Origin: Candidatus Zipacnadia bacterium
Lineage (GTDB): Bacteria > Armatimonadota > Zipacnadia > Zipacnadales > UBA5352
Length of the DNA stretch: 51,392 nucleotides
Direction: 5' to 3'
Assembly: GCA_029821265.1 (NCBI GenBank)
Contig: JALGTR010000012.1
Location: forward strand, 1-51,392
The translations under genes were made by a program, and so were the position numbers. How positions within the stretch are numbered: the stretch's first letter is position 1; each line of letters opens with the position of its first letter. Positions 19,847-51,225 of the stretch are shown here, piece by piece. Below the pieces are notes generated by a model, which was not told the origin of the DNA, did no database searches, and saw only the letters and a list, made by a program, of their open reading frames with translations.

Positions 19847-20644
19847 TCAGATCATCTCCACCGTCAACCACGCCACACGGCCCCACAGCCTCATCCCCAC
19901 GGCGCCGTCCTTCGACGCGCATGCCGCTGCGATCCCCGCGCCAAAGAGATGCTCGATGCCCTCCTGTACGGGGAACTCCGCCTCGTGCAGCAACACGTAC
20001 TGGTCGAAGCGCACGCCCCCGGCCATTCCCCCGCTGTCCCAGCCGGTGCGGAGCGAGTATCGCCCACGCTCCTTCGGGTGGCAGTGTGCGATCCACACGC
20101 CCATCCAGGCCGCAGTCGTGCCCTGGCGCTGCGCCTCCGCGGCTGCCACGCCGTCCACCACCACCGCCACACGCGCGCGCACGCGGCCATCGCGCGGCGG
20201 TGTGAAGACCAGGCACGGGCTCGCGATAGAGTAGGCGTACTGCCCTGTGCCGGAGCGCAGGTCTATGTCGAAGATCCCCCGATGGTCGCCCGCATTGACG
20301 ACCGCCTCACCGCTGCCGCGCGCTGAGTTGTTGCAGCCGCGCGGCATCGGCGGCGTGAAGATCCAGTGCGCATCGCTGTCCGGCTGCGCAGGATCCGGCA
20401 GCGCCCACTGCTCGGGCTGTTCGGCCGCGTCGAGCCAGCCGTCGATCGCCGCCGTGTCCCCGACCGCCTCCGCGCCGGCCACGAAACGCTCCAGGCTCTG
20501 CTGCATCGCGTCCATCATCAGCAGCGGGCCCTGCTTGCCGCCGGCGCCTCGCGTCAGCCACTGCTCGCCGTCGTACTGCGCCACCGCGGCCGTCGCCAGC
20601 AGCGTCGCCGTGCAGATCACCATCATCGCCCACGGCATCGTCAT
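19847..20644 (-). CDS. hypothetical exported protein
   Basis: This is only the C-terminal 265 codons of the 1026-aa track ORF 19847-22927. Translation from ATG 20644 (alternatives 20638 and 20671) begins MTMPWAMMVICTATLLATAAVAQ, a signal peptide, with a purine-rich GAGGTGCGAGGGG upstream. I recognise no family. Confidence 0.55.
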   Translation of the reverse strand: MTMPWAMMVICTATLLATAAVAQYDGEQWLTRGAGGKQGPLLMMDAMQQSLERFVAGAEAVGDTAAIDGWLDAAEQPEQWALPDPAQPDSDAHWIFTPPMPRGCNNSARGSGEAVVNAGDHRGIFDIDLRSGTGQYAYSIASPCLVFTPPRDGRVRARVAVVVDGVAAAEAQRQGTTAAWMGVWIAHCHPKERGRYSLRTGWDSGGMAGGVRFDQYVLLHEAEFPVQEGIEHLFGAGIAAACASKDGAVGMRLWGRVAWLTVEMI

Positions 20645-20731
20645 CCCCTCGCACCTCTTCCATGCTGCCATGATTCGCTTGCCGGCGGGCCGGAGGAATG
20701 GGCGCGCCGGTCGTGGAAGCTCCAAATCACC

Positions 20732-20828
20732 TGGAGGCGGGTGTGCGAGTCGAACGCACCCGGGGGCCGATGCGCTGGCCCCCGCCGCGGATTTGCAGTC
20801 CGCGGGGGACACCGGTCCCGTCCCCGCC
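20732..20828 (-). tRNA. atypical tRNA-Cys(GCA), 97 nt, long variable arm and tRNA-Sec-like core
   Basis: The reverse complement reads GGCGGGG-AC-GGGAC-CGGT-GTCCC-CC-GCGGA-CTGCAAA-TCCGC-GGC-GGGGGCC-AGCGCATC-GGCCCCC-GG-GTGCG-TTCGACT-CGCAC-ACCCGCC-T-CCA. The acceptor has 6 WC pairs plus a G7/A66 mismatch. The T arm is 5 bp with a TTCGACT loop. The anticodon loop is C-U-GCA-A-A. The discriminator is U and the CCA is encoded. It lies in the 252-nt divergent intergenic region. Confidence 0.75.
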
Positions 20829-20896
20829 CGTACTCCAAAACGATTCGCGGCCCGCCGCGTGTTCCCCTTGCCGGCGGCGCACGAGGAGGCCACAAA

Positions 20897-36485: not shown

Positions 36486-36497
36486 GTAAGTGACGAC

Positions 36498-36944
36498 ATG
36501 GATACCCCCGAGAACCTCGGCGACAGGGTCCGGGAACACGGCGGGCGGATGACACGCCAGCGCAAACTCGTCCTCGAGACGCTGGCGCAGTCGCAGTGCC
36601 ATCCGACCGCCACCGAGCTGTACGACATGGTCAAAGAGCGCATGCCGGGCATCAGCCAGGGCACCGTCTACCGGAACCTCAACCGGCTGCAGGAGCTCGG
36701 CTACGTGCAGGAGCTCGACTACGGTGCAGGCGCTTCGCACTACGACGCGCGCGTCGAGCCGCACTATCACGTGCGCTGCGAGCAGTGCGGCCGCGTCGAT
36801 GACGTGCAGATCGACCTCGAACCGCGCCCGAGCATCGGCGACGCCGCCCGGGTGGCAGAGGGCTGGCGCATTCACGAGCAGCGTGTCGAGTTCACGGGAG
36901 TCTGCCCCGAGTGCCAGGACACACGCTCCGAGGACGAAGAGTAG
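36498..36944 (+). CDS. Fur-family transcriptional regulator (PerR-like by context)
   Basis: 148 aa. RMTRQRKLVLETL...HPTATELYDMV...ISQGTVYRNLNRLQELG is a winged helix. HYHVRCEQCGRV...CPEC gives the CxxC...CxxC structural zinc site. Confidence 0.85.
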   Translation: MDTPENLGDRVREHGGRMTRQRKLVLETLAQSQCHPTATELYDMVKERMPGISQGTVYRNLNRLQELGYVQELDYGAGASHYDARVEPHYHVRCEQCGRVDDVQIDLEPRPSIGDAARVAEGWRIHEQRVEFTGVCPECQDTRSEDEE

Positions 36945-36986
36945 GCATGTACGGAGGATCATCAGTCTGACGTGGAGGAGTAGCTC

Positions 36987-37559
36987 ATGGAGCTGAAGGG
37001 GAGCCGCACCGAACAGAACATCCTGACCGCGTTTGCCGGCGAGTCGCAGGCACGCAACAGATACACCTACTTCGCCGAAAAAGCGCGCGACGAAGGCTAT
37101 GAGCAGATTGCGGCGATCTTCGAGGAGACCGCAAACCAGGAGCGTGCTCACGCAAAGCGGCTCTTCAAGTTCCTCGAGGGCGGCGAGGTCGAGATCCAGG
37201 CCGCCTACCCGGCCGGGTACATCGGCACCACCGCCGAAAACCTCAGGGCCGCGGCCGAGGGCGAACACCACGAGTACAGCGAGATGTACCCTCAGTTCGC
37301 TGAGGTCGCGAAAGAGGAGGGCTTCAACAAGATCGCGGCGGCGTTCACCTCGATCGCGAAGGCCGAGGTCGGCCACGAGCGCCGCTACCGCTCCCTGCTC
37401 GAGAACGTGCGGGGAAACCGGGTCTTCGAGCGTGACACCAAGGTCGTCTGGCGCTGCCGCAACTGCGGCTACCTGCACGAGGCGACCGCCGCGCCCAGCA
37501 AGTGCGCGGCCTGCGAGGAGCCTCAGGCGCAGTTCGAGGTCTACACCGAGACGTGGTAA
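36987..37559 (+). CDS. rbr: rubrerythrin
   Basis: 190 aa with GGAGGAG upstream. It has a ferritin-like di-iron domain (FAGESQARNRYTYF...EETANQERAHAKRLF...AAEGEHHEY) and a C-terminal rubredoxin-like WRCRNCGY...KCAACEEP. Confidence 0.92.
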   Translation: MELKGSRTEQNILTAFAGESQARNRYTYFAEKARDEGYEQIAAIFEETANQERAHAKRLFKFLEGGEVEIQAAYPAGYIGTTAENLRAAAEGEHHEYSEMYPQFAEVAKEEGFNKIAAAFTSIAKAEVGHERRYRSLLENVRGNRVFERDTKVVWRCRNCGYLHEATAAPSKCAACEEPQAQFEVYTETW

Positions 37560-37766
37560 GGGCCACGTGACGAACCCGGCGGGGCTTCCGCCCCGGCAGG
37601 AGCCCCGCCGGATGGAAGCGAAACAACTCACGACCGAACCAGAAGGGTCGCAGACCTCGCGTGCCGTCTCTACGACAATCGAGGCTGCTGACCCTCTGCA
37701 GTGTCTGCCGTGGGTCAGCCAGCCCGCCCTCACCGGCTGAGCCGACGACTCGCGGAGTGTCTGATC

Positions 37767-38975
37767 ATGCACGTTGAGCTGACCGACGGAATCAACTGGG
37801 TCGGCGCGATCGACTGGAACGTCCGTGACTTCCACGGCTACGAGACCAGGCGCGGCTCGACCTACAACGCCTACCTCGTCCAGGGCGAGAAGACCGCGCT
37901 CGTTGACACCGTCAAGAGGAACTTCGCGAATACGCTGCTTGCCAGTGTCGATGAGCTCACCGGACTCGACGCGGTGGACTACGTGATTGTCAACCACGGT
38001 GAGCCCGATCACTCCAGCGCCCTGCCTGCAGTCATGGAGGCCTGCCCGCAGGCAACGGTGGTCACCAACGAGAAGGCCGTCGCCACGCTGGAGGGCTACT
38101 ACGACCCGACCGACTGGCAGATCGAGGTCATCAACAGCGGCGACAGCCTCGACCTCGGCGGCCGCTCCCTCACCTTCGTGCAGACCCCCATGGTCCACTG
38201 GCCCGACTCCATGGTCAGCTACTGCCCGGAGGAGAAGATCCTCTTCTCCAACGATGCCTTCGGGCAGCACCTCGCGTCCTCCCACCGATTCGACGACCAG
38301 ATGGACCTGTCGGTCGTGATGGAGGAGGCGAAGACATACTACGCCAACATCGTGATGCTCTACGGCCGGCCGATCGCGAAAGCGATGGAGGCCCTCGGCG
38401 ACCTCGAGATCGAGATCATCGCGCCAGCCCACGGCGTCGTCTGGCGGGAGCACATCCCGACCATCCTCGACGCCTACACTAACTGGGTCGCCTGCCGGCC
38501 GACCGCAAAGGTCCTCGTCATCTACGAGTCGATGTGGCAATCCACCGACTGCATGGCCCACGAGATCGTCAAGGGCGCCACACGCGATGGCGTCGAGGTC
38601 AAACTTCTGAACGTCACCAGGACCGGGCGAACCGTCCTCGCGACCGAGGTGCTCGACGCCGCGGCGATCGCGTTCGGCTCGCCCACACTCAATATGACGC
38701 TCATGCCGGAGATGGCCGGCGCGCTCACCTACCTCAAGGGCCTGTCACCCAAGAACAAGGCCGCCATGGCCTTCGGCTCCTATGGCTGGGCGCCGAGCGG
38801 GCCCCGTGCGATCCAGCAGTACATCGAGGAGATGGACATGAAGATCCTGCGCGAGCCCCTCACCGCGCAGTGGAGGCCCGATGAACAGGCGCGCGAGGCC
38901 TGTCGCCAGGCGGGCGCAATGCTCGCGGATTACGCCGAGGAGGCCGCCGCAAACGCCGAGTCCTTCCATCCATAG
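37767..38975 (+). CDS. flavodiiron protein (rubredoxin:oxygen/NO oxidoreductase type)
   Basis: ATG 37767 lies inside track ORF 37701-38975. It has a metallo-beta-lactamase-like domain with the VNHGEPDHSSA di-iron motif, then a flavodoxin-like domain (KVLVIYESMWQSTDCMA...AIAFGSPTLNMT). Confidence 0.9.
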   Translation: MHVELTDGINWVGAIDWNVRDFHGYETRRGSTYNAYLVQGEKTALVDTVKRNFANTLLASVDELTGLDAVDYVIVNHGEPDHSSALPAVMEACPQATVVTNEKAVATLEGYYDPTDWQIEVINSGDSLDLGGRSLTFVQTPMVHWPDSMVSYCPEEKILFSNDAFGQHLASSHRFDDQMDLSVVMEEAKTYYANIVMLYGRPIAKAMEALGDLEIEIIAPAHGVVWREHIPTILDAYTNWVACRPTAKVLVIYESMWQSTDCMAHEIVKGATRDGVEVKLLNVTRTGRTVLATEVLDAAAIAFGSPTLNMTLMPEMAGALTYLKGLSPKNKAAMAFGSYGWAPSGPRAIQQYIEEMDMKILREPLTAQWRPDEQAREACRQAGAMLADYAEEAAANAESFHP

Positions 38976-39059
38976 CCCCCCGAGGCAAACGCCGCGAACT
39001 AAGATCGCACAATCGACGCACATATACCGCGCCGTCATTCGCCGAGGAGGGTAAGATTG

Positions 39060-39221
39060 ATGCAAAAATACGAATGCCTCGCATGTAGCTATGTCTACGA
39101 TCCCGAGAAGGGAGACCCTGATAACGGCGTCGAGCCCGGGACGCCCTTCGAAGATCTGCCCGATGACTGGGTCTGCCCCGACTGCGGCGTGGGCAAAGAG
39201 ATGTTCGAGCCCATCGACTGA
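39060..39221 (+). CDS. rubredoxin (53 aa)
   Basis: Too short for the ORF track. [53 protein letters not shown] has the CxxC...CPxCG signature, with GAGGAGGG upstream. Confidence 0.9.
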
Positions 39222-39257
39222 GCTCAGCCCCGTGACCCAATGTACGCCATGTACGCC

Positions 39258-39281
39258 GGGCGAGGCCTCCAGGCCTCGCCC
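39258..39281 (+). terminator. hairpin terminator of the perR-rbr-fdp-rd operon
   Basis: GGGCGAGGCCT-CC-AGGCCTCGCCC followed by GAACTCTTTCCC. Confidence 0.5.
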
Positions 39282-39371
39282 GAACTCTTTCCCACCTCAA
39301 GAACACCTCGCCATATTGTAACGTCTCTTGCACATTTTTGAAGCGTTTCCGCCACACCTGCAATGCCGCAG

Positions 39372-39680
39372 TTGTCCACGAACTTGAAGCTTATCAACAC
39401 TTTGGATTCTCGTGGAGTCTCTGTGAAAGCCGCGACAACGCCGCTCGCCAATCCATCCTCACGGCACCAGCACGCCTCTACGGCCCTCTACGCGATTTTC
39501 GCAGAATCCGCTGATTCCCTTTGCAATGCGTCCGGGGTTCTGCTATACTACGACCGCATGGGGAGGGAGAAACAGGTTTTCCACAAGTGTTGATAACTAT
39601 GTGGAAAACCCGGTAAGCCGAACGGACTCACGGTCTCCCGTGGGTCAAACACCGTTCAGGAGACGCTAAGTTATCCACGC
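39372..39680. other. DnaA-box cluster upstream of dnaA (oriC part / dnaA autoregulatory region)
   Basis: 9-mers within 1-2 mismatches of TTATCCACA: TTGTCCACG (39372-39380), TTATCAACA (39391-39399), TTTTCCACA (39578-39586), TGTTGATAA (39589-39597), TGTGGAAAA (39601-39609) and TTATCCACG (39672-39680). Local GC is well below the window average. Confidence 0.6.
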
Positions 39681-39823
39681 AGACCGCATCACAGCAACCA
39701 TCGCGGTACTGGTCTCATCCACGCGCTGCTACGTCCCGACCATGCCTGTACGGAAGGCGGCTGCGACCGCATTCCACTCGCACCGGCAGCACACAGGCAC
39801 AGTGAAAAGGACGGATACCGTAG

Positions 39824-41272
39824 ATGGCAAGCGAGACACAGCTTTCCGGGGAGCAACTCTGGCGCGCAAGCCTGCCTCTGCTGGCCGAGAAGGTCAGCCC
39901 CGCGACCTACGATGGGTTCCTTACCAGCGCCGTTGCGCTCGACTTCCAGGGCGATAATCTGACCATCGGCGTGGTCAACGAATTTGCGAGGGACTGGCTT
40001 GAACGACACCACTCCGCAGCGATGACCGAGTGCGTGCGGGAGGTCGCCCAGCGACCCGTCAACGTCAACGTCTGCGTCGCGCCCGAGACACTGGCCGACA
40101 CCAAAACCGAGACGCCGTCAGAGGTCCCGGCCGAGGACGCAGCGACCGGCGTCGAGACCGCTTCTGACCCGGCCCCGGCAGTGCAGGCCCCGAGCCCCGC
40201 TGCCACGCCGGTCTCCCTGGTTCCCGACTCCACCGGCGAGCTTCGCTCGTTTCCGCTCAACCCCAAATACACATTCAACGACTTCGTCGTGGCGGACTGT
40301 AACCGCTTCGCACACGCGGCCGCACTTCAGGTGGCCAAGTCACCGGGCCAGGCCTACAACCCGCTATTCATCCACTCCGCCTCCGGCCTCGGAAAGACCC
40401 ACCTGATCCAGGCGATCGGCCACTCCATCATCGCCAACCGGCCCGACTGCAAAGTCGTCTACATCTCCGCCGAGGCGTTCGTCAACCACATGATCTCGTG
40501 TATGCGCGACAACACCATCGACCGCTTCCGCCAGAACTACCGCTCGGTCGATGTCTGGCTGGTGGATGACATCCAGTTCATCGCCGCCATTGAGGGCCCG
40601 GCTTCCGAGGAGGAGTTCTTCCACACCTTCAACACCCTCTACGAGACCAACCGCCAGGTGGTCATCGCCTCCGATTGCCCGCCGCGCCATCTGCAGCTTA
40701 TGAACGAGCGCCTCCGCTCCCGACTGGAGATGGGCATCGTCGCCGACCTGCGCGTTCCCGACGTCGAGACCCGCGTGGCCATCCTCGAGAAGAAGGCCCA
40801 GGCCGAGGGCGTCCCGCTCTCGCGCGATATCCTCGAGTATGTGGCCTCCAAGATCGAATCGAATATCCGGGTCCTCGAGGGCGCGCTCCTGAAGATCTGC
40901 GCATACGCCTCCCTCAACGACCAGGAGATCACGCGCTCGCTCGTCGAGGAGATCATCGGCGATTACTCCACCTCCACGACCGAGCGCCGAATCTCGCTCA
41001 AAGAGATCGTCGATCTCGTCTCCGCGGAACTCGACGTCCCTGCGGATGACATCGTCTCGAAGAAGCGCTCCGCCGACATCGCGTGGGCCAGGCAGGTCGC
41101 GATCTACCTCTCCCGCGAACTCACCGACAACTCGCTGGCGCGCATAGGCGAGGCATTCGGGGGTCGCGACCACTCGACCGTCCTCCACTCATATAACAAG
41201 GTCGCGGAGCTGATCGAAGAGGACGAGCAGGTCCTGTGGCTCATCAACGACCTCAAGGCCGCCTTCGAGTAG
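39824..41272 (+). CDS. dnaA: chromosomal replication initiator protein DnaA
   Basis: 482 aa. It has the AAA+ Walker A GLGKTHLIQAIG, Walker B VWLVDDIQF, and a C-terminal DNA-binding domain ...IAWARQVAIYLSRELTDNSLARIGEAFGGRDHSTVLHSYNKV. Confidence 0.97.
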   Translation: MASETQLSGEQLWRASLPLLAEKVSPATYDGFLTSAVALDFQGDNLTIGVVNEFARDWLERHHSAAMTECVREVAQRPVNVNVCVAPETLADTKTETPSEVPAEDAATGVETASDPAPAVQAPSPAATPVSLVPDSTGELRSFPLNPKYTFNDFVVADCNRFAHAAALQVAKSPGQAYNPLFIHSASGLGKTHLIQAIGHSIIANRPDCKVVYISAEAFVNHMISCMRDNTIDRFRQNYRSVDVWLVDDIQFIAAIEGPASEEEFFHTFNTLYETNRQVVIASDCPPRHLQLMNERLRSRLEMGIVADLRVPDVETRVAILEKKAQAEGVPLSRDILEYVASKIESNIRVLEGALLKICAYASLNDQEITRSLVEEIIGDYSTSTTERRISLKEIVDLVSAELDVPADDIVSKKRSADIAWARQVAIYLSRELTDNSLARIGEAFGGRDHSTVLHSYNKVAELIEEDEQVLWLINDLKAAFE

Positions 41273-41276
41273 CGCC

Positions 41277-41297
41277 CGCCTGAGTTCCCCTCAGGCG
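41277..41297 (+). terminator. hairpin immediately after dnaA
   Basis: CGCCTGAG-TTCCC-CTCAGGCG, 5 nt after the stop. Two further GC hairpins follow within 70 nt. Confidence 0.4.
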
Positions 41298-41650
41298 AAG
41301 GCGCAATGGATGGCGCCTCCCATGTGCGAAGAGCCAGCCTTCCCGGGCTGGCGCTTCGCCGTTCACCTGCCGACGACAACGCGGCAGCCGACGCGCGACG
41401 CACAAGCATCCCGCCACCCACACCGCTCGCCTCGCCGGCCCCTGACACGTGACACTACCCACCAGCGTCTGAGGTCCCTCCATGCCGACTCGTTGCTGCA
41501 CCGCGGCTGTGAGTCCGGCGAAGGCAAACGCAAGACTTCGCGTGGAATACTCCAGCCGACTGACGCCGATGTGGGTTCTGTTGAGATCATCGCCAGTTCT
41601 CAGCAAGTTCTCTTGAGATTGCCTTCATCGAACGCCCGTGCGGCGTGCCG

Positions 41651-41896
41651 ACAGTCCACATCTCAACACCGTGGAGGCCCGAGCGCTCTCAACGTTCTCC
41701 ACGCCCCAGGGGACGTGTGACGGCCCGCTACGCCGCTTTCCCCGCGGACTCTCCACGACCGTCCACGACCCCGCCTTCGGGTTCCCTTCAGCGCACCTGC
41801 GCCCCACCGTTGCCTCATCAGCGCTTCTCCACGTTCTCAACGGACGGAGTAGTAGGAGTAGTAAGGTATGTTAAAGCAAAAGACAGTACTACTATA
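41651..41896 (+). other. oriC core candidate: co-oriented DnaA-box-like repeats, TAG/TAA trio run, AT-rich unwinding element
   Basis: The TCCAC(A/G) core occurs at acaGTCCACA (41651-41660), TTCTCCACG (41695-41703), CTCTCCACG (41749-41757), CCGTCCACG (41759-41767) and TTCTCCACG (41825-41833). Three of these are juxtaposed with TCTCAAC(A/G). After GACGG comes TAG-TAG-GAG-TAG-TAA (41850-41864), then TATGTTAAAGCAAAAGACAGTACTACTATAG. Confidence 0.6.
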
Positions 41897-42042
41897 GCCG
41901 TTGACAACCCTGACCATCGCCCGCCCATCGCTGCCCGATGACGATCCGCATCGGCGTTCGGAACCGGCTTCACGACATCCCGCCGCCCCTCCGACATCTC
42001 TGCTCCTGCCCGGAGGTCTTCTCCCCCACGCGGCGAATTGCC

Positions 42043-42071
42043 TTGACGCACCCGCCGCAATGCGGTTAACT
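42043..42071 (+). promoter_or_regulatory. sigma70-like promoter for dnaN
   Basis: TTGACG (42043-42048), a 17-nt spacer, then TTAACT (42066-42071), 48 nt before ATG 42119. Confidence 0.4.
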
Positions 42072-42118
42072 AAGAGGCTGCTATCGTAGCCGTGAAGAGT
42101 TCCAGGGAGGCCCCGGAG

Positions 42119-43231
42119 ATGCTCAACGTCTCTTGCACTCAGACGGAGCTGTACGAAGCTGTGCAGACGGTATCGCACGGCGTGTCGGGGCGCAGCACGC
42201 AGCCCGTCCAGAATAACATCTACCTCGAGAGCACCGCAGACCAGTTGCGGCTGGTGGCCACCGACCTCGAGTTCATCAGCCTCGAGGCGGTCATCAACGC
42301 GAGCGTCGTCGATCAGGGAGCAGTAACCGTCCCTGCGAGACTGCTCACCGACGTGGTCGGCTCGGTCGGCGCCTCGGAGATCAGCCTTCGGGCCAACGAC
42401 AACAGCATGCTCACGGTCGAGGCCGGCCGGTCGAGCTTCCTGATCCGGGGCATGTCCGCCGCAGACTTCGAGATGCTTCCGCCGATGGAGGATGCGCTCG
42501 AGTTCGAGTTGACCCAGCGCGACCTGCACAGCATCCTCTCTCAGATCGTCTTTGCGACCTCCCGTGACGAGACTCGTCCGATCCTCACCGGTGCGCTGTT
42601 CAACATCAGCCCCGGTGGCCTCGAGGTCGTTGCCACCGACACCTACCGCCTCGCGCTGCGCCGCATGACCGCCGAGATACCCATCGACGAGCCGACCAGC
42701 GCGATCATCTCCGAGCGCGCCCTCAACGAGATTCTGCGCATCCTCGAGCCCGAGTCCGAGGAGCCCGTTCGCGTCTCCCTCACCGACTCGCAGGTCAGCT
42801 GCGTCGTGGGGAACGTCACCGTCGGCTCCCGGCTCATCGAAGGGCAGTTCCCCAATTACGAGAAGGTCCTGCCCGACTCCAGCGACCGCCGGGTCACCGT
42901 CGATCGCGAGGGACTTACCGACTCGCTGCGCAGGATGCTCATCGTGGCCCGCGAGGACGCCAACCGCATCGTCCTGCGCGGCTCCGACGGGGAGCTTACC
43001 ATCACCGCCGACTCGCAGGACGTGGGGCACGCTGAGGAGCAGATCCCGGCCACCCTCGAGGGCGAGGAGCCGGAGATCGCATTCAACGCCCGGTACCTGC
43101 TCGATGCACTGCAGGCCATCACTCAGGAGCAGGTGGTGCTGGAGCTGTCACAGCCGCTGGCTCCCGGCACCCTCAAGCCGCTGGACTCCGATGATTACCT
43201 CTACGTGATCATGCCGATGCAGATCATGTGA
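42119..43231 (+). CDS. dnaN: DNA polymerase III beta sliding clamp
   Basis: ATG 42119 (GGGAGG 8 nt upstream) lies inside track ORF 42092-43231. 370 aa. MLNVSCTQTELYEAVQTVSHGVS...TRPILTGALF...RLIEGQFPNYEKVLP...YVIMPMQI is the canonical beta-clamp pattern. Confidence 0.95.
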   Translation: MLNVSCTQTELYEAVQTVSHGVSGRSTQPVQNNIYLESTADQLRLVATDLEFISLEAVINASVVDQGAVTVPARLLTDVVGSVGASEISLRANDNSMLTVEAGRSSFLIRGMSAADFEMLPPMEDALEFELTQRDLHSILSQIVFATSRDETRPILTGALFNISPGGLEVVATDTYRLALRRMTAEIPIDEPTSAIISERALNEILRILEPESEEPVRVSLTDSQVSCVVGNVTVGSRLIEGQFPNYEKVLPDSSDRRVTVDREGLTDSLRRMLIVAREDANRIVLRGSDGELTITADSQDVGHAEEQIPATLEGEEPEIAFNARYLLDALQAITQEQVVLELSQPLAPGTLKPLDSDDYLYVIMPMQIM

Positions 43232-43259
43232 GGCGCCGCATCGGCGCATCCGATCTTCC

Positions 43260-43290
43260 AGCGGGCACAGGCGATTCGTCTGTGCCCGCT
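43260..43290 (+). terminator. hairpin between dnaN and recF
   Basis: AGCGGGCACAG-GCGATTCGT-CTGTGCCCGCT followed by TCGTGTC. Confidence 0.4.
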
Positions 43291-43383
43291 TCGTGTCAGG
43301 GGCCGGGGGCGTGAGAAGAGCCGAAGGCGAACCCTGCCACAGAGACCACCACCGGACTGGAGGACAGGCGGGCAGAACAGGGC

Positions 43384-44559
43384 ATGTATCTGAAGACGCT
43401 GACGCTTGAAAACTTCCGCTGCTACGAGCAGACCCGGATCGAGCTGCCCCGCGGGCTCGTCGTGGTCCTGGGGCCGAACGCCTCCGGGAAGACCACACTG
43501 CTTGAGGCGGTCTACCTCCTGGCGACCACCACCTCGCCGCGCTCAGGTCCCGCCCGAGCGATGGTCCGTCACGGGCAGTCATGGGGCCGCGTAACGGGCG
43601 TCTTCGAGCGCGACGGGCGCGAGGTCACGATCAGCGTGACGCTCGGCGATCCATCCGGCTCGCGCTCGGGCTCGAAGACGGTAGAGGTCGATGGCCGCGA
43701 GGTGGACAGCCTGCGTGAGGCGATCGGGCGGGTGCAGGCCAGCCTGTTCTGGGTGGGATCACTGGAGGTTGTGAAGGGCTCGCCGTCTGAGCGCCGGCGC
43801 TTCATGAACGAGGCGATCGGGCAGACCAGCGCCCGCTACCTCGATGACCTCGCCCGCTACCGCCGGGCGCTTCGCCAGCGCAACGAGCTGCTTAGGTCCA
43901 TTCGGGCACGTGGCGGATCAGGCTCGATCCTCGCCCCGTGGACCCGCGCGCTGGTGGATGCCGGTGTGCCGATCATCGAGGATCGTGCCTCATTCGTCCG
44001 CGCGCTCGCCGCCGAGGCCGCGCCAATGCATCTGCGGCTGGGAGCCGGCGCCGAGGAGCTGTCGGTGCAGTACGATCCGTCCGTGGCCGCCGGCTCCGAT
44101 CTCGATGCCGAGGACGAGTTCTACCAGCGCCTGGAGGAGACGCACGAGCGGGAGGTCGAGCGCGGTTCGACGCAGGTCGGCCCACACCGCGATGACGTCA
44201 TCCTCACCGTGGACGGCGTGGACGTGCGACGCTTCGGCTCACAGGGCCAGCAGCGCACGGCGGCTCTGGCGCTTACCCTGGCCCAGGCGTCGGTGGCGCG
44301 GGTGCGCACCGAGACTGAGCCGATCCTCCTGCTGGATGACTGTCTGTCGGAGCTTGATCCGGCCCGTGGTGCGGCGATGCTCGATCTGTCGGAGGATCGT
44401 GAGCAGATGATCGTGACGAGCGCGTGCTGTCCGGAACACCTCGCGGAACGGCTCGCAGACGCGCACGTGATCGACACCGGCGGGGAACTGGCCTCCTGCA
44501 GACCATGTCGAATTCCCGACATTGAGGGCCGTAACACGGAGTCTCACCATGGACCATGA
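43384..44559 (+). CDS. recF: DNA replication and repair protein RecF
   Basis: 391 aa. MYLKTLTLENFRCYE...VVLGPNASGKTTLLEAV (Walker A) ...SQGQQRTAALALTLAQ (signature) ...ILLLDDCLSELD (Walker B). Confidence 0.93.
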   Translation: MYLKTLTLENFRCYEQTRIELPRGLVVVLGPNASGKTTLLEAVYLLATTTSPRSGPARAMVRHGQSWGRVTGVFERDGREVTISVTLGDPSGSRSGSKTVEVDGREVDSLREAIGRVQASLFWVGSLEVVKGSPSERRRFMNEAIGQTSARYLDDLARYRRALRQRNELLRSIRARGGSGSILAPWTRALVDAGVPIIEDRASFVRALAAEAAPMHLRLGAGAEELSVQYDPSVAAGSDLDAEDEFYQRLEETHEREVERGSTQVGPHRDDVILTVDGVDVRRFGSQGQQRTAALALTLAQASVARVRTETEPILLLDDCLSELDPARGAAMLDLSEDREQMIVTSACCPEHLAERLADAHVIDTGGELASCRPCRIPDIEGRNTESHHGP

Positions 44560-45193
44560 TCGGCAGCATCACGAAAAGCGCATCGGGGATGTGCTGAACG
44601 CGTTCCTCAAGAGCCACGGGATGCTCGAGGAATCGCGCGAGGAGCTCTGTGCACTGCTGTGGCCGGAGGTCGCCGGCAGGTGGTACGCCGAGCACTCCTA
44701 CGTCACCAGCGTGCGCGACGGTGTCTGTAACGTGCGCTGCGATTCGGCGCCCCGCGCGCACCAGCTTCAGCTTGACTCGCCCGCCATCGTTCAGCGCCTC
44801 AACGAGCGGCTGGGCGTCGAGTTCATCAGCGAGATCCGCGCCTCCAGCGCCGGTATCGGCGATCGGCCCACCGAGGAGTTCGCCGAGCCGGATCCTGAGC
44901 CGACCCCAACGCCCGAGGAGCTTGACGCGATCGCCGTCCCGCCTGAGGAGGTCAGGGCGATCCTCGAGGCCACCGCCGCTCTCGAGGGGGAGATTCGCAA
45001 CCGGCTCGAGAAGCTTATGTTGCGGCAGGCGCGAGTGGACATCTGGAAGCGCGAACACGGTTACGTGCAGTGCCCAGGCTGCGGCACGCTCCATCGAGAT
45101 CGCCCGAAATGGTGTCTCGCCTGCAGGCCACCGGAGGCCCCCTCACAGGGCGGCGGCGAGGAGGGCCTCAGCGCCTTCTTCGACGCGGACTGA
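44549..45193 (+). CDS. DUF721/DciA-like protein with C-terminal zinc ribbon
   Basis: ATG 44549 (GGAG 7 nt upstream) overlaps the recF end by 11 nt. RIGDVLNAFLKSHGMLEESREELCALLWPEVAG...VRDGVCNVRCDSAPRAHQLQLDSPAIVQRLNERLG is the DUF721 pattern, which is conserved after recF. The C-terminus has CPGCGTLHRDRPKWCLAC. Confidence 0.75.
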   Translation: MDHDRQHHEKRIGDVLNAFLKSHGMLEESREELCALLWPEVAGRWYAEHSYVTSVRDGVCNVRCDSAPRAHQLQLDSPAIVQRLNERLGVEFISEIRASSAGIGDRPTEEFAEPDPEPTPTPEELDAIAVPPEEVRAILEATAALEGEIRNRLEKLMLRQARVDIWKREHGYVQCPGCGTLHRDRPKWCLACRPPEAPSQGGGEEGLSAFFDAD

Positions 45194-45253
45194 CCACCGC
45201 CGCCTGCCGAAGATCACGGTCATTGATGAGCGATCACTCGGAGGTCAACTATC

Positions 45254-46714
45254 ATGTCCCAGCAGTTCGAGGGCTCGATCGAGAAGATTGACGACTACCA
45301 CTGGCGCATCCCGCGCGAGCAGGACAGCCGCATGCGCACAGACGGCATCGTGATCGCCGACGAGGAGCTGATGAAAGATATACGCACCGATTCCGCGCTC
45401 ACGCAGGTGCAGAACGTGGCCTGCCTGCCGGGAATCGTCGGCGCGTCGATGGCCATGCCCGACTGCCACTACGGCTACGGCTTCCCGATCGGGGGCGTCG
45501 CGGCGTTCGACACCTCCGAGGGCGTCATCTCCCCCGGCGGCGTCGGCTACGATATCAACTGCGGCGTCCGCCTGCTGCGCACCGACCTCGAGGACCACGA
45601 CATCCGAGACAGGCTCGACGCGCTGATCGATCACATCTTCCGCGAGATCCCCGCCGGCATCGGCGAATCAGGCAGGGTCCGCCTCAATCACGCCGAACTG
45701 CGCCGCGTGCTGACGAAGGGCGTGAGCTGGGCGATCTCCCAGGGCTACGGCACCGAGGCCGACCTCGAGACCTGTGAGGAGCGCGGCTGCCTCGAGGGCG
45801 CCGACCCCGACGCACTGTCGGATCGCGCGCTGGAGCGCGGCCTGCCGCAGCTGGGCACCGTCGGCTCGGGCAACCACTTCCTCGAGATCCAGCGCGTCGA
45901 TCGGATCTGCGACCGCGGCGCGGCCGACGCCATGGGACTGCTCGACGAGGGCCAGGTGATGGTCATGATCCACACCGGCTCGCGCGGGCTCGGCTACCAG
46001 GTCTGCGATGACTCGCTCAGGCCCATGCAGAAGGCCGCCAGCAAATACGGGATCGACCTGCCTGACCGTCAGCTCGCCTGCGCGCCCGTCGAATCGCCCG
46101 AGGGCCAGCGATACTACGCCGCGATGGCGTGCGCGGCCAACTACGGCTGGTGCAACCGCCAGATAATCACCCACTGGGTGCGCGAGGCCTTTGAGCGCAC
46201 GCTCGGGATGGGCGTGGCCAGAATCGGCCTGCAACTCGTCTACGACGTGGCCCACAACGTCGCCAAGATCGAGTGGCACGAGGTCGATGGTGTGCGTCGC
46301 CAACTGTGCGTGCATCGCAAGGGCGCCACCCGCGCCTTCGGGCCCGGTCGGCAGGAGGTCCCCGAGACGTATCGTGACATCGGCCAGCCGGTTCTCGTGC
46401 CCGGCGACATGGGCACGGCCTCGTGGCTGCTGCGCGGCACCGACGAGGCGATGAGGCAGACTTTCGGCTCCACCTGCCATGGCGCCGGCCGCGTGATGTC
46501 CCGCACTGCCGCCACGAAGCGCCAGCACGGACGCGAGGTCCAGTCGGAACTGCAGGCCCGCGGCATCCACGTGCGATCCGCTGGCCTGAAGACGCTGGCC
46601 GAGGAGGCCCCATACGCCTACAAGGACGTCGACCGCGTCATCACCGTCGCGCATGAGGCGGGCATCTCCCGCCGTGTCGCGCGCATGACGCCCATGGCCG
46701 TCGTCAAGGGATGA
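45254..46714 (+). CDS. rtcB: RNA 3'-phosphate ligase RtcB
   Basis: 486 aa. ...VQNVACLPGIVGASMAMPDCHYGYGFPIGGVAAFD...GGVGYDINCGVRLL...GSGNHFLEIQ...MIHTGSRGLGYQV...CHGAGRVMSR are the RtcB metal and GTP/His motifs. Confidence 0.93.
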   Translation: MSQQFEGSIEKIDDYHWRIPREQDSRMRTDGIVIADEELMKDIRTDSALTQVQNVACLPGIVGASMAMPDCHYGYGFPIGGVAAFDTSEGVISPGGVGYDINCGVRLLRTDLEDHDIRDRLDALIDHIFREIPAGIGESGRVRLNHAELRRVLTKGVSWAISQGYGTEADLETCEERGCLEGADPDALSDRALERGLPQLGTVGSGNHFLEIQRVDRICDRGAADAMGLLDEGQVMVMIHTGSRGLGYQVCDDSLRPMQKAASKYGIDLPDRQLACAPVESPEGQRYYAAMACAANYGWCNRQIITHWVREAFERTLGMGVARIGLQLVYDVAHNVAKIEWHEVDGVRRQLCVHRKGATRAFGPGRQEVPETYRDIGQPVLVPGDMGTASWLLRGTDEAMRQTFGSTCHGAGRVMSRTAATKRQHGREVQSELQARGIHVRSAGLKTLAEEAPYAYKDVDRVITVAHEAGISRRVARMTPMAVVKG

Positions 46715-46774
46715 GCCCGCGCTCACCCGAGCATCCTCCGCCACCAGTGGCGGCTGAGCGCCCGGCACCGAGCA

Positions 46775-46804
46775 TTGCCAGACGTAACACCCTTGCGCTA
46801 TAAT
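46775..46804 (+). promoter_or_regulatory. sigma70-like promoter for the P-type ATPase gene
   Basis: TTGCCA (46775-46780), an 18-nt spacer, then TATAAT (46799-46804). A 7-bp hairpin AGCGCCC/GGGCGCT lies in the ~60-nt leader. Confidence 0.5.
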
Positions 46805-46865
46805 GCACCCCGAAAGCGACTACCAGCGCCCTCGTGCGGGCGCTTCACGGATGTGACAACTGACG

Positions 46866-49688
46866 ATGAGCGCAGAAGACCAGACCGCGCTCGCCGAAGA
46901 TGAACGCGAGGACTACTACGCCGCGGAGACCGACCGCGTCCTCAAGGAACTGAACACCGACCCCGAGAACGGTCTCAGCACTGAGGAAGCCCGACGGCGC
47001 CTCGAGGCATACGGCCCCAACGAGCTCGAGAGCGAGGGCGGCGTCCACCCGCTGAAGATCCTCCTCCGGCAGTTCACCGAGATCCTGGTGATCGTGCTGA
47101 TTGCCGCCTCCATCGTGTCTGGCGCGATCGGCGAGATCGTCGACTCGATTGTCATCATGGCAATCGTCATCCTCAACGCCATCCTCGGCTTCGTGCAGGA
47201 GTACCGCGCCGAGCAGGCCGTCGAGGCCCTGCGCAAGATGGCCTCCCCCACCGCCACCGTGCTGCGCGACGGCCGGCAGGTGGAGGTCCCATCATCGGAA
47301 GTCGTCCCGGGCGACATCCTCATCCTCGAGACCGGAGACAAGATCGCCGCCGACGCGCGTGTGCTGGAGGCGTACAACCTCGAGACAGACGAGGCCCTGC
47401 TCACCGGTGAGTCGCTGCCCGTCTCCAAGGGCCCCTCCGTCTGTCCGATCGACACGCCCCTTGCCGAGCGCACCGCCATGGTCTTCATGGGCACACACGT
47501 GACCTACGGCCGCGGGCGCGCCGTCGTCACCAACACCGGCATGCGGACCCAGATGGGCCTCATCGCCGAGCAGGTGCAGGCCCCCGACGCCACCGCCACC
47601 AGCCTTGAGCGCAAGCTGCAGGTGCTCGCCAAGTGGCTGCTCGCCGTCGTCTGCGGCCTGTGCGCGATCATCTTCCTGATCGGCTGGCTCTGGCGTGGCG
47701 GCGACCCGCTGCAGCTGTTCATGACCGTCGTCGCCCTCGCCGTCGCAGCCATCCCGGAGGGCCTGCCGGCGGTCGTGACCCTCTCGCTCGCCCTCTCCGT
47801 CCGGCGCATGGCCCAGCGTAATGCCATCGTCAAGCGCCTCTCCGCCGCCGAGGCCCTCGGCTCAACCACCGTCATCTGCTCGGACAAGACCGGCACGATG
47901 ACCGCCAACGAGATGGCCGTCGTCCGCATCTGGGCCGACGGCAAAGAGTACGAGGTCGAGAGCCGCGGCTACGCGCCCGAGGGCAATGTGCTTGATGACG
48001 GAAAGCCCATCACAGCCGATGACAGCACGGTCATGGAGCTGATCGCGCGGATCTCGGCACTCTGCAACGATTCGACCCTGGTCCAGGACGACGACTGGAC
48101 CATCACAGGCGACCCCACCGAGGGCGCCCTGCTGCCGCTGGCACGCAAGCTGGGCGTAAACGAGAACGAGCTTCGCGATAGCATGCCCCGCGTGCACGAG
48201 ATCGCCTTCGACTCCGAGCGCAAGCGCATGACCACGCTGCACGAGCAGAATGGCTCGATCTTCGTCGCCACCAAGGGCGCTGCGGAGGTGGTTCTCGAAC
48301 GCTGCTCGCACATCCAGACCGAGGACGGTCCACGCGAACTCTCCGCCGAGGAAGCGCGGCAGATCGCCGACGTCGGTTCATCGATGGCTGACGACGCGCT
48401 GCGGGTCCTCGCACTTGCGTGGCGGGAGATGGATCCCGATCAGGTCGGTGAGGCCTGCGACGCCGATGTTGTGGAGACCGACCTGGTCTTCGCCGGCCTC
48501 GTGGGCATGATCGACCCGGCGCGGCCTGAGGTCGCGCAGTCCATTGAGGAGTGCCACAGCGCAGGTGTGCAGGTGAAGATGGTCACCGGTGACCACGCGC
48601 GCACCGCCGCCGCAATCGCGAGGGAGATCAACCTCATCAGCGATGACGCGGATCGCGTCGTCGATGGCGTCGAGCTCGACGAGATGAGCGACGAAGAGCT
48701 CCGGCGTGAGGTCGATCGGATCGCCGTCTTCGCCCGTATGGCCCCCGACCACAAGGTGCGAATCCTCGAGGCGCTCCAGAGCCGCGGGCATATCGTCGGT
48801 ATGACCGGCGATGGCATCAACGACGCCCCGGCGCTCAAGCGCTCGGACATCGGCGTCGGCATGGCGAAGAAGGGCACCGACGTCACCCGCGAGGTCTCCG
48901 ACATCGTCCTCGCCGACGACAACTTCGCCTCCATCGTGGCCGCCGTTGAGGAAGGCCGTGTCGTCTACGACAACATCCGCAAGTTCACGCGCTTTCTGCT
49001 CTCCGCCAACTTCGGTGAGCTGCTTATCATCTCGATCGCCGTGTTGCTTGGCTGGCCGCTGCCTCTAGTGCCGCTGCAGATCCTCTGGGTCAACCTCGTG
49101 ACCGATGGCCTGCCCGCGCTGGCGCTTGGCGTCACAAAGGGCGAGCCGGACATCATGCATCGTCCGCCCCGTGACCCCGAGGAGAACATGCTCAGGGATA
49201 TGCTCCCATACCTTGTCGTCGTCGCAGTCCTCTGCGCCGCCGGCGCACTCGGCGGCTTCGTCTGGGAGATGGCCGCCCAGGGCGTCGGCTACAACGAGAT
49301 GCTGCAGCTTGCCACCGGTGGCCATGGCGCCGCCGTCGAGATGACCCAGGCGCAGGAGCACGCGCTCAAGATGGCGCGCACGGTTGCGTTGACGCAACTG
49401 GTGCTCTTCGAGCTGTTCTTGGTCTTCAACTGTCAGTCAGATCGCCAGTCGTTCCGCCAGATCGGCTTCCGAAACCCGCAGCTCTTCGGCGCCGTCGTCA
49501 TCTCGCTGGCCCTGCATGCCGTCCTGCTCTACATCCCGGCGGTGCGTGAGATGTTCCATCTCGGGGCGCTCGAGCTCGATGACTGGGGCCGGATCCTGCT
49601 GCTGGCCCTGCCCGGGCTGTTCATCAGCCCGCGCGTGCTCGTCCGTCATCACGGCGAGGCCAAATCGAACGGGCAGCAAGCCGCATGA
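46866..49688 (+). CDS. cation-transporting P-type ATPase, P2 (SERCA/PMCA-like, probably Ca2+) subfamily
   Basis: 940 aa. It has TGES (LLTGESLPV), the phosphorylation site CSDKTGTMT, KGA, MVTGDH, the TGDGINDAPALK hinge and 10 predicted TM helices. Confidence 0.92.
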   Translation: MSAEDQTALAEDEREDYYAAETDRVLKELNTDPENGLSTEEARRRLEAYGPNELESEGGVHPLKILLRQFTEILVIVLIAASIVSGAIGEIVDSIVIMAIVILNAILGFVQEYRAEQAVEALRKMASPTATVLRDGRQVEVPSSEVVPGDILILETGDKIAADARVLEAYNLETDEALLTGESLPVSKGPSVCPIDTPLAERTAMVFMGTHVTYGRGRAVVTNTGMRTQMGLIAEQVQAPDATATSLERKLQVLAKWLLAVVCGLCAIIFLIGWLWRGGDPLQLFMTVVALAVAAIPEGLPAVVTLSLALSVRRMAQRNAIVKRLSAAEALGSTTVICSDKTGTMTANEMAVVRIWADGKEYEVESRGYAPEGNVLDDGKPITADDSTVMELIARISALCNDSTLVQDDDWTITGDPTEGALLPLARKLGVNENELRDSMPRVHEIAFDSERKRMTTLHEQNGSIFVATKGAAEVVLERCSHIQTEDGPRELSAEEARQIADVGSSMADDALRVLALAWREMDPDQVGEACDADVVETDLVFAGLVGMIDPARPEVAQSIEECHSAGVQVKMVTGDHARTAAAIAREINLISDDADRVVDGVELDEMSDEELRREVDRIAVFARMAPDHKVRILEALQSRGHIVGMTGDGINDAPALKRSDIGVGMAKKGTDVTREVSDIVLADDNFASIVAAVEEGRVVYDNIRKFTRFLLSANFGELLIISIAVLLGWPLPLVPLQILWVNLVTDGLPALALGVTKGEPDIMHRPPRDPEENMLRDMLPYLVVVAVLCAAGALGGFVWEMAAQGVGYNEMLQLATGGHGAAVEMTQAQEHALKMARTVALTQLVLFELFLVFNCQSDRQSFRQIGFRNPQLFGAVVISLALHAVLLYIPAVREMFHLGALELDDWGRILLLALPGLFISPRVLVRHHGEAKSNGQQAA

Positions 49689-49941
49689 GCAGCGCGCGCA
49701 AATGCACAACCAACAGCCGTCGCCGCAGCCGGGAGCGTTGCCGCAGGCCCGACGTGTGAGCCTGCTCGGGGCGTCCCCACCTTCACTGGAGGCGAGCGCC
49801 TCGCCCGGCAGGAGTGTAGGGCGGTGCACGCTCCGGCGCGGCAACGGCCGTCCGTGACCTGAAAGCCCGCCGGCGTGTGCAGCCGCGGGCCCGGGACCGC
49901 TGACCAACGACCTATCGATCTGCCGAAAGGATGCTCCGTTC

Positions 49942-51225
49942 ATGATCGACCACAGGATCGTCCGCGAGACCCCCGAGATCATCCGCGAGGCGCTGCGCAG
50001 GCGCCGCTTCGAGTACGACCTCGACCGTCTGATCGAGCTTGAGGCCAGGCGCCGCGAGCTGCTCCAGGTGGAGAATCTGCGCGCGGAGAAGAACCGGCTC
50101 TCCAATGAGATCGGGGCGGCCTATCGCGAGGGCGACGAGCAGCGGGCCGAGGAGCTGAAAGAGCGCGTCGCCGAGATCTCCGCGCAGATCGAAGCGCAGG
50201 AGGAGGAGCTCGAGCGCGTCGAGGAGCAGTTCCACGCGATGATGCTCGAGCTGCCCAATATCCCACTCGACGAGGTCCCGGAGGGCGACGGCGAGGAGGA
50301 CAACCCTGTGCTCTACGAGTGGGGCGACAGACCCGAGTTCAGCTTCGAGCCTCTCCCCCACTGGGAGCTCGCCGAACGCCTCGGGATCCTCGATTTCGAG
50401 CGCGCGGCGAAGATCGCCGCAGCGCGCTTCACCATGAACGTCGGCGCCGGCGCAACCATCGAGCGCGCGCTCATCAACTTCATGCTCGACGTCCACACCC
50501 GCGAGCACGGCTACACCGAGGTCGTCCCGCCTTACCTCGCCAATACCCGCTCGCTCATCGGCACAGCCACCCTGCCGAAGTTCGAGCAGGACCAGTTCAA
50601 GACCCGCGAGGGCCTCTACCTCATCCCGACCGCCGAGGTCCCGCTCACCAACATGCACCAGGACGAGATTCTCAGCGCCGAGGAGCTGCCCAAGTACTAT
50701 GCCGCCTACACCGCCTGCTTCCGCCGCGAGGCCGGATCGGCTGGCCAGGAATCGCGCGGCCTCATCCGGCTGCACCAGTTCAATAAAGTCGAGCTCATGA
50801 AGTTCGTCACACCCGAAACCGCCGACGAGGAGCTCGAGCGCCTCACACTCAACGCCGAGGAGATCCTCAAGCGCCTCGAGCTGCCCTACCGCCGCATCCT
50901 CCTCTGTACCGGCGACATGGGCTTCCAGCCCCAGCGCACCTTCGACCTCGAGGTCTGGATGCCCGGAATGAACCGCTGGGTCGAGATCAGCTCCTGCAGC
51001 CAGTACGGCGAGTTCCAGGCCCGCCGCGCCGGCACACGCTACCGCCCCGAGCCCGAGGCCTCCCCTCGATACGTCCACACCATGAACGGCTCCGGCGTCG
51101 CCGCCGGCCGATGCCTCGCCGCCGTGCTGGAGAACTACCAGCAGGAGGACGGCTCGATCGCGGTGCCCGATGTGCTGCGACCCTACGTCGGCGGCCTCGT
51201 CGAAATCCCGGCACCGGTCGGATAG
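49942..51225 (+). CDS. serS: seryl-tRNA synthetase
   Basis: 427 aa. It has an N-terminal coiled-coil arm (…[28 protein letters not shown]…) and class II motifs (…[13 protein letters not shown]…RLHQFNKVE…, …[13 protein letters not shown]…, …[11 protein letters not shown]…). Confidence 0.95.

Follow-up and report, generated by a model that had tools for sequence, protein, structure and literature searches.

Which codons are served by a tRNA that joins a complete cysteine (Cys) identity set to a body resembling selenocysteine (Sec) tRNA, and where does such a molecule come from? This question is raised by a 97-nt tRNA gene at positions 20732-20828 of the minus strand of contig JALGTR010000012.1 from a Candidatus Zipacnadia bacterium. 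The window analyzed here is the entire contig, 51,392 bp. Sec-like tRNAs with Cys identity let cells read selenocysteine UGA codons as Cys and therefore matter for the translation and annotation of selenoproteins in metagenomes. The window tRNA belongs to a known rare class that has already been described; what is new is a well-defined Armatimonadota lineage with a 7/5 acceptor/T branch (7-bp acceptor stem, 5-bp T stem) and a 5-bp D stem. We refer to the window tRNA and its Armatimonadota orthologues as family A, and to a separate, larger family of long-arm Sec-like tRNA-Cys genes as family B.

Detection and fold of the tRNA

ARAGORN called a single tRNA in the whole window, a 97-nt tRNA-Cys with anticodon GCA at 20732-20828 (-), and placed the anticodon at position 33 of the molecule. 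An earlier note, made from the sequence alone, had transcribed this part of the minus strand exactly as it stands in the contig and had presented the tRNA as hidden; that description fails, as a standard tool finds the gene at the coordinates claimed. In a cmscan search against Rfam, the sole match above a gathering score in the window was the tRNA-Sec model RF01852 (20735-20829 (-); 55.4 bits against a gathering score of 47 bits; E=1.4e-08), which beat the general tRNA model RF00005 in clan competition. The Sec-like body that had been proposed is thus recognized by the tRNA-Sec covariance model. The labels of the two tools clash: Infernal/Rfam pipelines call the gene tRNA-Sec, ARAGORN calls it tRNA-Cys. 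The expectation that standard annotation may miss or mislabel the gene holds for mislabeling and not for missing it. This clash can mislead, in either direction, calls of the Sec trait and predictions of UGA read-through, such as those for the UXXU [NiFeSe] hydrogenases of Armatimonadota.

The minimum-energy fold is the cloverleaf that had been described (-60 kcal/mol, 62% of the ensemble, z=-3.3 versus shuffled sequences). The 5' acceptor strand GGCGGGG (positions 1-7; 20822..20828 (-)), which holds G1, G2 and C3 of the Cys identity pairs and is invariant in 11 sequences, forms six pairs and a G7.A66 mismatch with the 3' strand ACCCGCC (20736-20742). The whole 3' end (20732..20742 (-)) further includes the discriminator U73 (20735) and an encoded CCA (20732-20734); UCCA is invariant in the 11 sequences, while the downstream flank is unconserved. 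The D arm (20806..20819 (-)) is Sec-like, with a 5-bp stem GGGAC/GUCCC that is invariant in family A and a CGGU tetraloop without a G15:G48-type loop. The anticodon arm (20785..20805 (-)), supported by covariation as well as by the fold, consists of a 7-bp stem CCGCGGA/UCCGCGG and the loop CUGCAAA, in which the anticodon GCA occupies 20794..20796 (-) and is invariant across orthologues. The D stem, its loop and the 7-bp anticodon stem all agree with the earlier description. The long variable arm (20761..20784 (-)) has an 8-bp stem (45-52/61-68) and an 8-nt loop, with compensatory double changes at 4 of the 8 pairs; the 7 bp counted previously fell one pair short, since C45-G68 pairs too and becomes U-A in locus L054. 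In the T arm (20743..20759 (-)), the 5-bp stem GUGCG/CGCAC carries the loop UUCGACU and shows a compensatory U-A to C-G change in L029.

Conservation and covariation among Armatimonadota relatives

The proteins encoded in the window have their closest counterparts in metagenome-assembled genomes of Armatimonadota. Orthologues were gathered by synteny look-ups and by one generic genome scan for long-arm tRNA-Cys, which returned at least 119 loci and gives no frequencies. The window tRNA was recovered in L028, L029/L034, L048, L054/L151, L117, L118, L132, L139, L152 and L153, giving at least 11 distinct family A sequences in the alignment. The records are labeled as Armatimonadota, Candidatus Zipacnadia (a class of that phylum), candidate division WS1 or uncultured bacterium. 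Family A orthologues score 60-63 bits against RF01852, except L132, which lies below every Rfam gathering score. This Zipacnadia orthologue (403-498) has a 3-nt D loop, CGG, from which the U has been deleted, and otherwise retains all family A features, including a perfect G7-C66 pair.

All 11 sequences are 95-97 nt long, and the Cys identity set proposed earlier (G1-C72, G2-C71, C3-G70, U73 and GCA) is present and invariant in them. Standard pairing occupies 96.5% of the cells of the alignment, versus 38-59% when the partners are slid by 1-3 columns. Changes on both sides were found at 7 pairs, a number reached in 0 of 500 shuffles. Two of these compensatory pairs lie in the anticodon stem (G-C to A-U and A-U to G-C, alongside three one-sided G-U/U-G changes), four in the variable stem, C45-G68 to U-A among them, and one in the T stem (U-A to C-G). 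The conservation with compensatory changes that the earlier note had asked for in relatives is thus found. The acceptor and D stems do not vary among the 11 sequences, position 7:66 excepted, so covariation is uninformative on both.

Eight sequences have G.A at position 7:66, and three (L132, L152 and L153) have G-C. The G7-C66 pair in these three fixes the 7-bp acceptor register; with A8 opposite C65, an 8/4 branch is impossible. The 7/5 branch claimed previously is therefore real. Invariant in family A are also U33, A37 and most of the T loop, together with GCA, U73 and CCA, whereas both flanks diverge freely. Given these invariant functional positions, the diverging flanks and the covariation, the window gene is a functional tRNA under structural selection and not a relic. 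Its Sec-like features have been kept by selection rather than by drift, the variable stem through four compensatory pairs and the D arm through invariance.

Relationship to selenocysteine-like tRNA-Cys genes

Besides family A, the generic scan yielded family B and a Thermoleophilia type. Family B has the pattern GGCYGGUU..GGGAGC-CGGY-GCUCCC, occurs among the matches listed in Desulfobacterota, Acidobacteriota, Planctomycetota, Krumholzibacteria and UASB14/270 bacteria, and is the counterpart of what Mukai et al. 2017 (PMC5389517) called selC* tRNA-Cys. That study defined selC* tRNA-Cys as tRNA-Sec-like molecules with U73 and a GCA or UCA anticodon, listed anaerobic Firmicutes, Thermodesulfobacteria, Nitrospirae and delta-proteobacteria as hosts, always together with selA/B/C/D, described an 8-bp acceptor (8/4) in the delta-proteobacterial members, and showed cysteinylation of members by cysteinyl-tRNA synthetase (CysRS) as well as opal suppression. 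According to PMC11415595 and PMC13582414, the group was named tRNA-ReC by Vargas-Rodriguez et al. 2018 (RNA Biol 15:471); CysRS reportedly charges the tRNA-ReC (GCA) of Desulfotomaculum nigrificans, SelB rather than EF-Tu carries it, and it places Cys at UGA codons directed by a selenocysteine insertion sequence (SECIS).

Families A and B and the Thermoleophilia type all score as tRNA-Sec with RF01852; Rfam treats the long tRNA-Cys of jumbo phages, Synechococcus and Saccharibacteria as ordinary tRNA. Overall identity to the window tRNA is highest in the Desulfarculaceae/Thermodesulfobacteriota subtype of family B (68-69%; 86% for the Desulfarculaceae subtype over the T arm and 3' acceptor alone), followed by other family B members (57-66%), the Thermoleophilia type (58%), E. 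coli selC (55%) and E. coli cysT (46%). The selC sequence used matches the annotated tRNA-Sec at 100%, and the cysT sequence was also verified. Taking one base pair from the family B D arm GGGAGC-CGGU-GCUCCC gives the window D arm, and the 5' anticodon arm CCGCGGACUGCAAA of the window tRNA is identical in family B members. Since the tRNA is closest to Desulfarculaceae-type selC* and shares its D and anticodon arms, sequence comparison places the Armatimonadota tRNA within the selC*/tRNA-ReC family, as one of its lineages, rather than as an independent local conversion of selC. The selC scaffold re-assigned to Cys that had been suggested before gives way accordingly, its nearest relatives being selC*/tRNA-ReC genes rather than E. 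coli selC. The features of E. coli selC listed in support of that suggestion (the CGGU D loop, the GGGGCC...CCCGG variable arm and the UUCGACU T loop) do hold against the real gene, and E. coli tRNA-Cys has the same T loop.

The Desulfarculaceae subtype folds as 7/5 and the Thermoleophilia type as 8/4, and a 12-bp acceptor/T branch is a trait of the family. The 7/5 branch is therefore present in the window tRNA as described but is not unique to it, and an 8-bp acceptor is not universal among selC* tRNAs. The molecule is of the rare Sec-like tRNA-Cys kind that had been recognized, yet it is less novel than had been supposed: the class was described in 2017-2018 (PMC5389517), and tRNA-ReC-like genes were noted in Armatimonadota in 2026 (PMC13582414). 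These results extend the selC*/tRNA-ReC family firmly into Armatimonadota, with a cloverleaf supported by covariation, and show that a 7/5 form exists in a family first described as 8/4.

Genomic neighborhood and patchy occurrence

In all family loci, the family A tRNA lies between a same-strand gene for a protein of about 900 aa and a divergent gene for a DUF3604/CehA-McbA-type metallohydrolase, and it is the only tRNA gene of the locus. The 900-aa gene had no Pfam, NCBIfam or PDB sequence match of its own, and its homologues bear glycoside-hydrolase (GH) domains (rhamnosidase/trehalase-like six-hairpin); as a SelB*- or CysRS*-like partner of the tRNA it was rejected on account of these domains. 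The family A tRNA thus lies in a polysaccharide-degradation neighborhood.

The window alone has a further gene between the tRNA and the 900-aa gene, encoding a 265-aa signal-peptide protein (19847-20644 (-)). It is the co-oriented exported-protein gene that the earlier note had placed downstream; it starts 87 nt past the tRNA and had no match in Pfam. An imperfect 18-nt direct repeat (83%; 20671-20688 and 20860-20877) flanks the tRNA. Together with the 265-aa gene unique to the window, this repeat hints that a short stretch was inserted or duplicated at the tRNA.

Relatives of similar divergence differ in whether they carry the tRNA. It is present in L054/L151 (GH protein 52% identical, DUF3604 protein ~60%) and in L152/L153, and absent at the same gene junction in L031 (GH 53%, DUF3604 61%), L030, L154 and L155. 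The syntenic tRNA-less locus L031, in which the GH-DUF3604 gene pair persists, contains no degraded tRNA remnant, and the deeper branches of the GH family, L156 and L157, have no tRNA. As equally diverged relatives have or lack the tRNA at the same junction, an accessory tRNA is suggested. Among the matches listed, family A is restricted to one Armatimonadota sub-clade and is patchy there. A metagenome scan with a family-specific pattern found one locus only, L151, identical to L054. Viral contigs gave no match to the pattern, and the element is therefore not phage-borne.

Modules of the Group 4 hydrogenase type were found near the tRNA in relatives, namely Mrp/Mbh antiporter genes (L028) and HycI (L029), and fit the Armatimonadota lineage bearing UXXU Group 4 [NiFeSe] hydrogenases of PMC13582414. 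The anaerobe-type genes of the window, encoding rubrerythrin, a flavodiiron protein and Fe-ADH (iron-containing alcohol dehydrogenase), are consistent with the published ecology of selC*.

Proposed role and alternative explanations

We favor, at about even confidence, the reading that the window gene is a functional tRNA of the selC*/tRNA-ReC type that would recode SECIS-directed UGA as Cys. By precedent within the class, CysRS would charge the tRNA with cysteine, and the tRNA would be accessory in a genome that also has an ordinary tRNA-Cys and selC. Its carrier to SECIS-directed UGA codons would be SelB or a variant of it, so that under scarce selenium, selenoprotein genes such as those for the UXXU Group 4 [NiFeSe] hydrogenases of Armatimonadota would be read through with Cys. 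The Sec-like D arm, the 7-bp anticodon stem and the long variable arm would keep the molecule in the SelB channel; the long variable arm is a modelled contact of SelB domain 3 (PMC4605307). In a 2026 survey, tRNA-ReC-like genes accompanied canonical selC in five of five Armatimonadota genomes with such hydrogenases (PMC13582414).

Several observations weigh against this reading. The acceptor/T helix of the window tRNA has 12 bp (7/5) versus 13 bp in tRNA-Sec, and in the work of Baron and Bock in 1991, cutting the acceptor of E. coli tRNA-Sec to 7 bp reportedly made it bind EF-Tu in place of SelB. The family A tRNA has no sel, selB*, cysS* or selenium/sulfur (Se/S) genes beside it, unlike family B, whose neighbors include genes for SelD, a YedE-like transporter, rhodanese and HdrA and serve as a positive control for selenium linkage. 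The 51-kb contig contains no selA, selB, selC or selD and no canonical tRNA-Cys, and no gene with an in-frame UGA was found in the window and 14 related loci, where only ordinary gene boundaries were seen. Finally, the Armatimonadota tRNA-ReC-like genes of PMC13582414 may belong to a family other than A.

An alternative explanation is an ordinary Cys tRNA, charged by CysRS, delivered by EF-Tu through its 12-bp 7/5 helix and reading UGC/UGU, with the Sec-like body an evolutionary leftover. We regard this explanation as possible, at a probability clearly short of even. It accords with the perfect Cys identity set and encoded CCA, with the 7/5 register backed by G7-C66 in L132, L152 and L153 and the impossibility of 8/4, with the 149 UGY codons in window genes to which GCA is cognate, with the lack of selenium-gene linkage, and with the tRNA being the only one seen in every family A locus. 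For an EF-Tu-dependent tRNA-Cys, however, the compensatory upkeep of Sec-like features would be needless. The G7.A66 mismatch, moreover, sits at the acceptor/T junction, the region in which Rudinger in 1996 reportedly located the EF-Tu antideterminants of tRNA-Sec. Other 12-bp members of the class (8/4) have been proposed to use SelB* (PMC5389517), and the one tested member is reported to use SelB as its carrier, not EF-Tu (PMC11415595). The compatibility with EF-Tu assumed by the earlier note follows from helix length and is weakened by the same report. In the strong version of this explanation, class I tRNA-Cys has been replaced and the window tRNA is the sole tRNA-Cys of the clade; such an essential tRNA is hard to square with its patchy distribution among close relatives. 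A related and rather doubtful scenario is that a tRNA-ReC-type molecule was shortened to the canonical 7/5 and handed to EF-Tu, becoming the general, possibly the only, Cys tRNA of the sub-clade. A long-arm tRNA would then have taken over naturally from a class I tRNA in serving one of the twenty standard amino acids, a change that would require the resident seryl-tRNA synthetase (SerRS) to reject the window tRNA.

SerRS could, conversely, accept the tRNA through its long, stable variable arm, after which Ser would be converted to Sec by SelA or by a different enzyme to Cys; the molecule would then be a sense-anticodon variant of tRNA-Sec or part of an indirect route to Cys. The SerRS encoded in the window is a standard one, complete with the N-terminal arm that recognizes long variable arms; on allo-tRNAs, U73 combined with a long arm can be enough for SerRS (PMC5389517), and a GCA-anticodon tRNA-Sec exists in Aeromonas (PMC11415595). 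This route is nevertheless quite unlikely: the invariant U73, G1-C72, G2-C71, C3-G70 and GCA form the CysRS set, class members are cysteinylated by CysRS experimentally (PMC5389517), the helix has 12 bp, the D stem has 5 bp where SelA reads 6, and no SelA- or SepCysS-like gene lies nearby. We consider it very improbable that the gene is a relic in decay or yields a tRNA-like RNA without a role in translation, such as a regulatory or processing element for the neighboring GH gene, even though the ~900-aa GH gene consistently follows the tRNA in the same orientation and no sigma-70 promoter match was found. Translation-relevant positions are invariant and stems are kept by compensatory changes, the GH-DUF3604 pair persists without the tRNA in L031, and in the window the tRNA and the GH gene are separated by another gene. 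Family A offers a natural test case for the acceptor-length rule that separates SelB from EF-Tu binding.

Flanking signals and the rest of the window

The motif GAAYCGTTT (20837..20846 (-)), located 9-18 nt ahead of the 5' end of the tRNA, recurs in 8 of 11 otherwise diverged upstream regions and may be a promoter or leader element. A sigma-70 promoter scan upstream of the window tRNA gave no consensus match, so any role of the motif stays conjectural. The downstream copy of the 18-nt repeat (20671-20688) holds a GCGAATC piece similar to this motif. A terminator-like G+C hairpin with a T-rich tail (20846-20859 (-)) lies just upstream of the tRNA on its strand, at a site where no gene in that orientation ends.

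Base -1 (window 20829 and equivalents) is a purine in 10 of 11 family A and 16 of 21 family B sequences and is never U in family B. Such a purine could pair with U73 or mark the transcription start. As specific evidence for an eighth acceptor pair, -1:73 was rejected, because the purine bias is common to family B and hence non-discriminating.

Farther along, the window contains dnaA, dnaN and recF (an origin region), followed by genes for RtcB RNA ligase, a P-type ATPase and SerRS (36486-51225). Upstream of the dnaA region lies a Fur-rubrerythrin-flavodiiron cluster typical of anaerobes.

Other long-arm tRNA-Cys genes

Family B was found in Acidobacteriota, Planctomycetota, Krumholzibacteria and UASB14/UASB270 (L045, L051, L142, L109, L085, L122 and others), beyond the published host range. 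In UASB14/270, the family B tRNA precedes by 740-900 nt a SelD open reading frame that seems truncated at its N-terminus, the effect expected of an in-frame UGA; in Desulfarculaceae it precedes a YedE-like transporter gene by 78-96 nt. The third Sec-like tRNA-Cys(GCA) lineage comes from Actinomycetota, a phylum not among the 2017 selC* hosts, and was seen in two metagenome-assembled genomes (MAGs) of Thermoleophilia (L040 6690-6785 and L149 2088-2183). This type is 96 nt long, with a clean 8/4 branch, a 6-bp D stem, a UGGC loop and RF01852 scores of 56-59 bits.

Long arms also occur on tRNA-Cys genes that are not Sec-like. Large phage tRNA arrays in IMG/VR contigs contain 89-93-nt long-variable-arm tRNA-Cys(GCA) genes that Rfam assigns to ordinary tRNA (L001 649-741, L004 1065-1154, L005 986-1077, L012 1993-2084, L015 3559-3650 and L025 309-397). 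In five of these six arrays they stand between tRNA-Tyr and tRNA-Leu(UAA), and in three (L004, L012 and L015) they are accompanied by tRNA-Cys genes of normal length. Genes for tRNA-Cys(GCA) of 87-91 nt with normal D arms and an extended variable region were found inside ordinary tRNA clusters of a Synechococcus MAG (L033 364-450), a Saccharibacteria record (L074 978-1064) and a rumen MAG (L041 2153-2243). As these score with RF00005, long-arm tRNA-Cys that are not Sec-like exist in cellular genomes too.

Comparison with known tRNA classes

Among known molecules, selC*/tRNA-ReC tRNAs resemble the window tRNA in their RF01852 match, U73, GCA anticodon, long variable arm, D tetraloop, lengthened anticodon stem and 12-bp branch, in the homology of the D, anticodon and T arms to Desulfobacterota members, and in their anaerobic hosts. 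Measured against the published definition (U73, a GCA or UCA anticodon and at least 80 nt; PMC5389517, PMC13582414), the window tRNA agrees throughout, and it has the long variable arm, lengthened anticodon stem and Sec-like D arm of the family. It differs in an acceptor of 7 bp (7:66 being G.A or G-C) instead of 8, in a D stem of 5 bp instead of 6, and in the direct joining of its 7-bp anticodon stem to the 8-bp variable stem. The linkage to selB*/cysS* or Se/S genes that holds for some selC* sub-groups is absent, family A lying beside no selB*, cysS*, selD, yedE or rhodanese genes. Armatimonadota are likewise absent from the 2017 host list and were noted in passing in 2026 (PMC13582414).

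The likeness to bacterial selC extends to the CGGU tetraloop, a 6-7-bp anticodon stem, a G/C-rich long variable arm, the UUCGACU loop, a length of ~95 nt and the RF01852 match. Bacterial tRNA-Sec, however, has a 13-bp 8/5 helix, G73, a UCA anticodon and a 6-bp D stem, in place of which the window tRNA has 12 bp, U73, GCA and 5 bp, and its acceptor stem carries Cys and not Ser/Sec identity pairs. With class I tRNA-Cys, represented by E. coli cysT, it shares G1-C72, G2-C71, C3-G70, U73, GCA, the T loop, the 7/5 branch and the inner 5 bp of the anticodon stem (GCGGA/UCCGC in the window, GCGGA/UCCGU in cysT). It falls outside the canonical form of that class (a 4-5-nt variable loop, a 3-4-bp D stem with an 8-9-nt loop and ~74 nt): its variable arm has 24 nt versus 4 in cysT, its length is 97 versus 74 nt, and its 4-nt D loop, against 8-9 nt, leaves it without a G15:G48-type core.

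Two further groups combine parts of this design differently. The GCA tRNA-Sec of Aeromonas salmonicida (Mukai et al. 2016, cited in PMC11415595) likewise joins a Sec-type body to a GCA anticodon but has Ser/Sec identity and inserts Sec at targeted UGC, whereas the window tRNA has the CysRS set. The allo-tRNAs of Mukai et al. 2017 share the 12-bp acceptor/T branch, the long variable arm and the Sec-like tetraloop D arm; they have Ser, sometimes Ala, identity, diverse anticodons and an 8/4 or 9/3 branch, in contrast to the 7/5 branch and Cys identity of the window tRNA.

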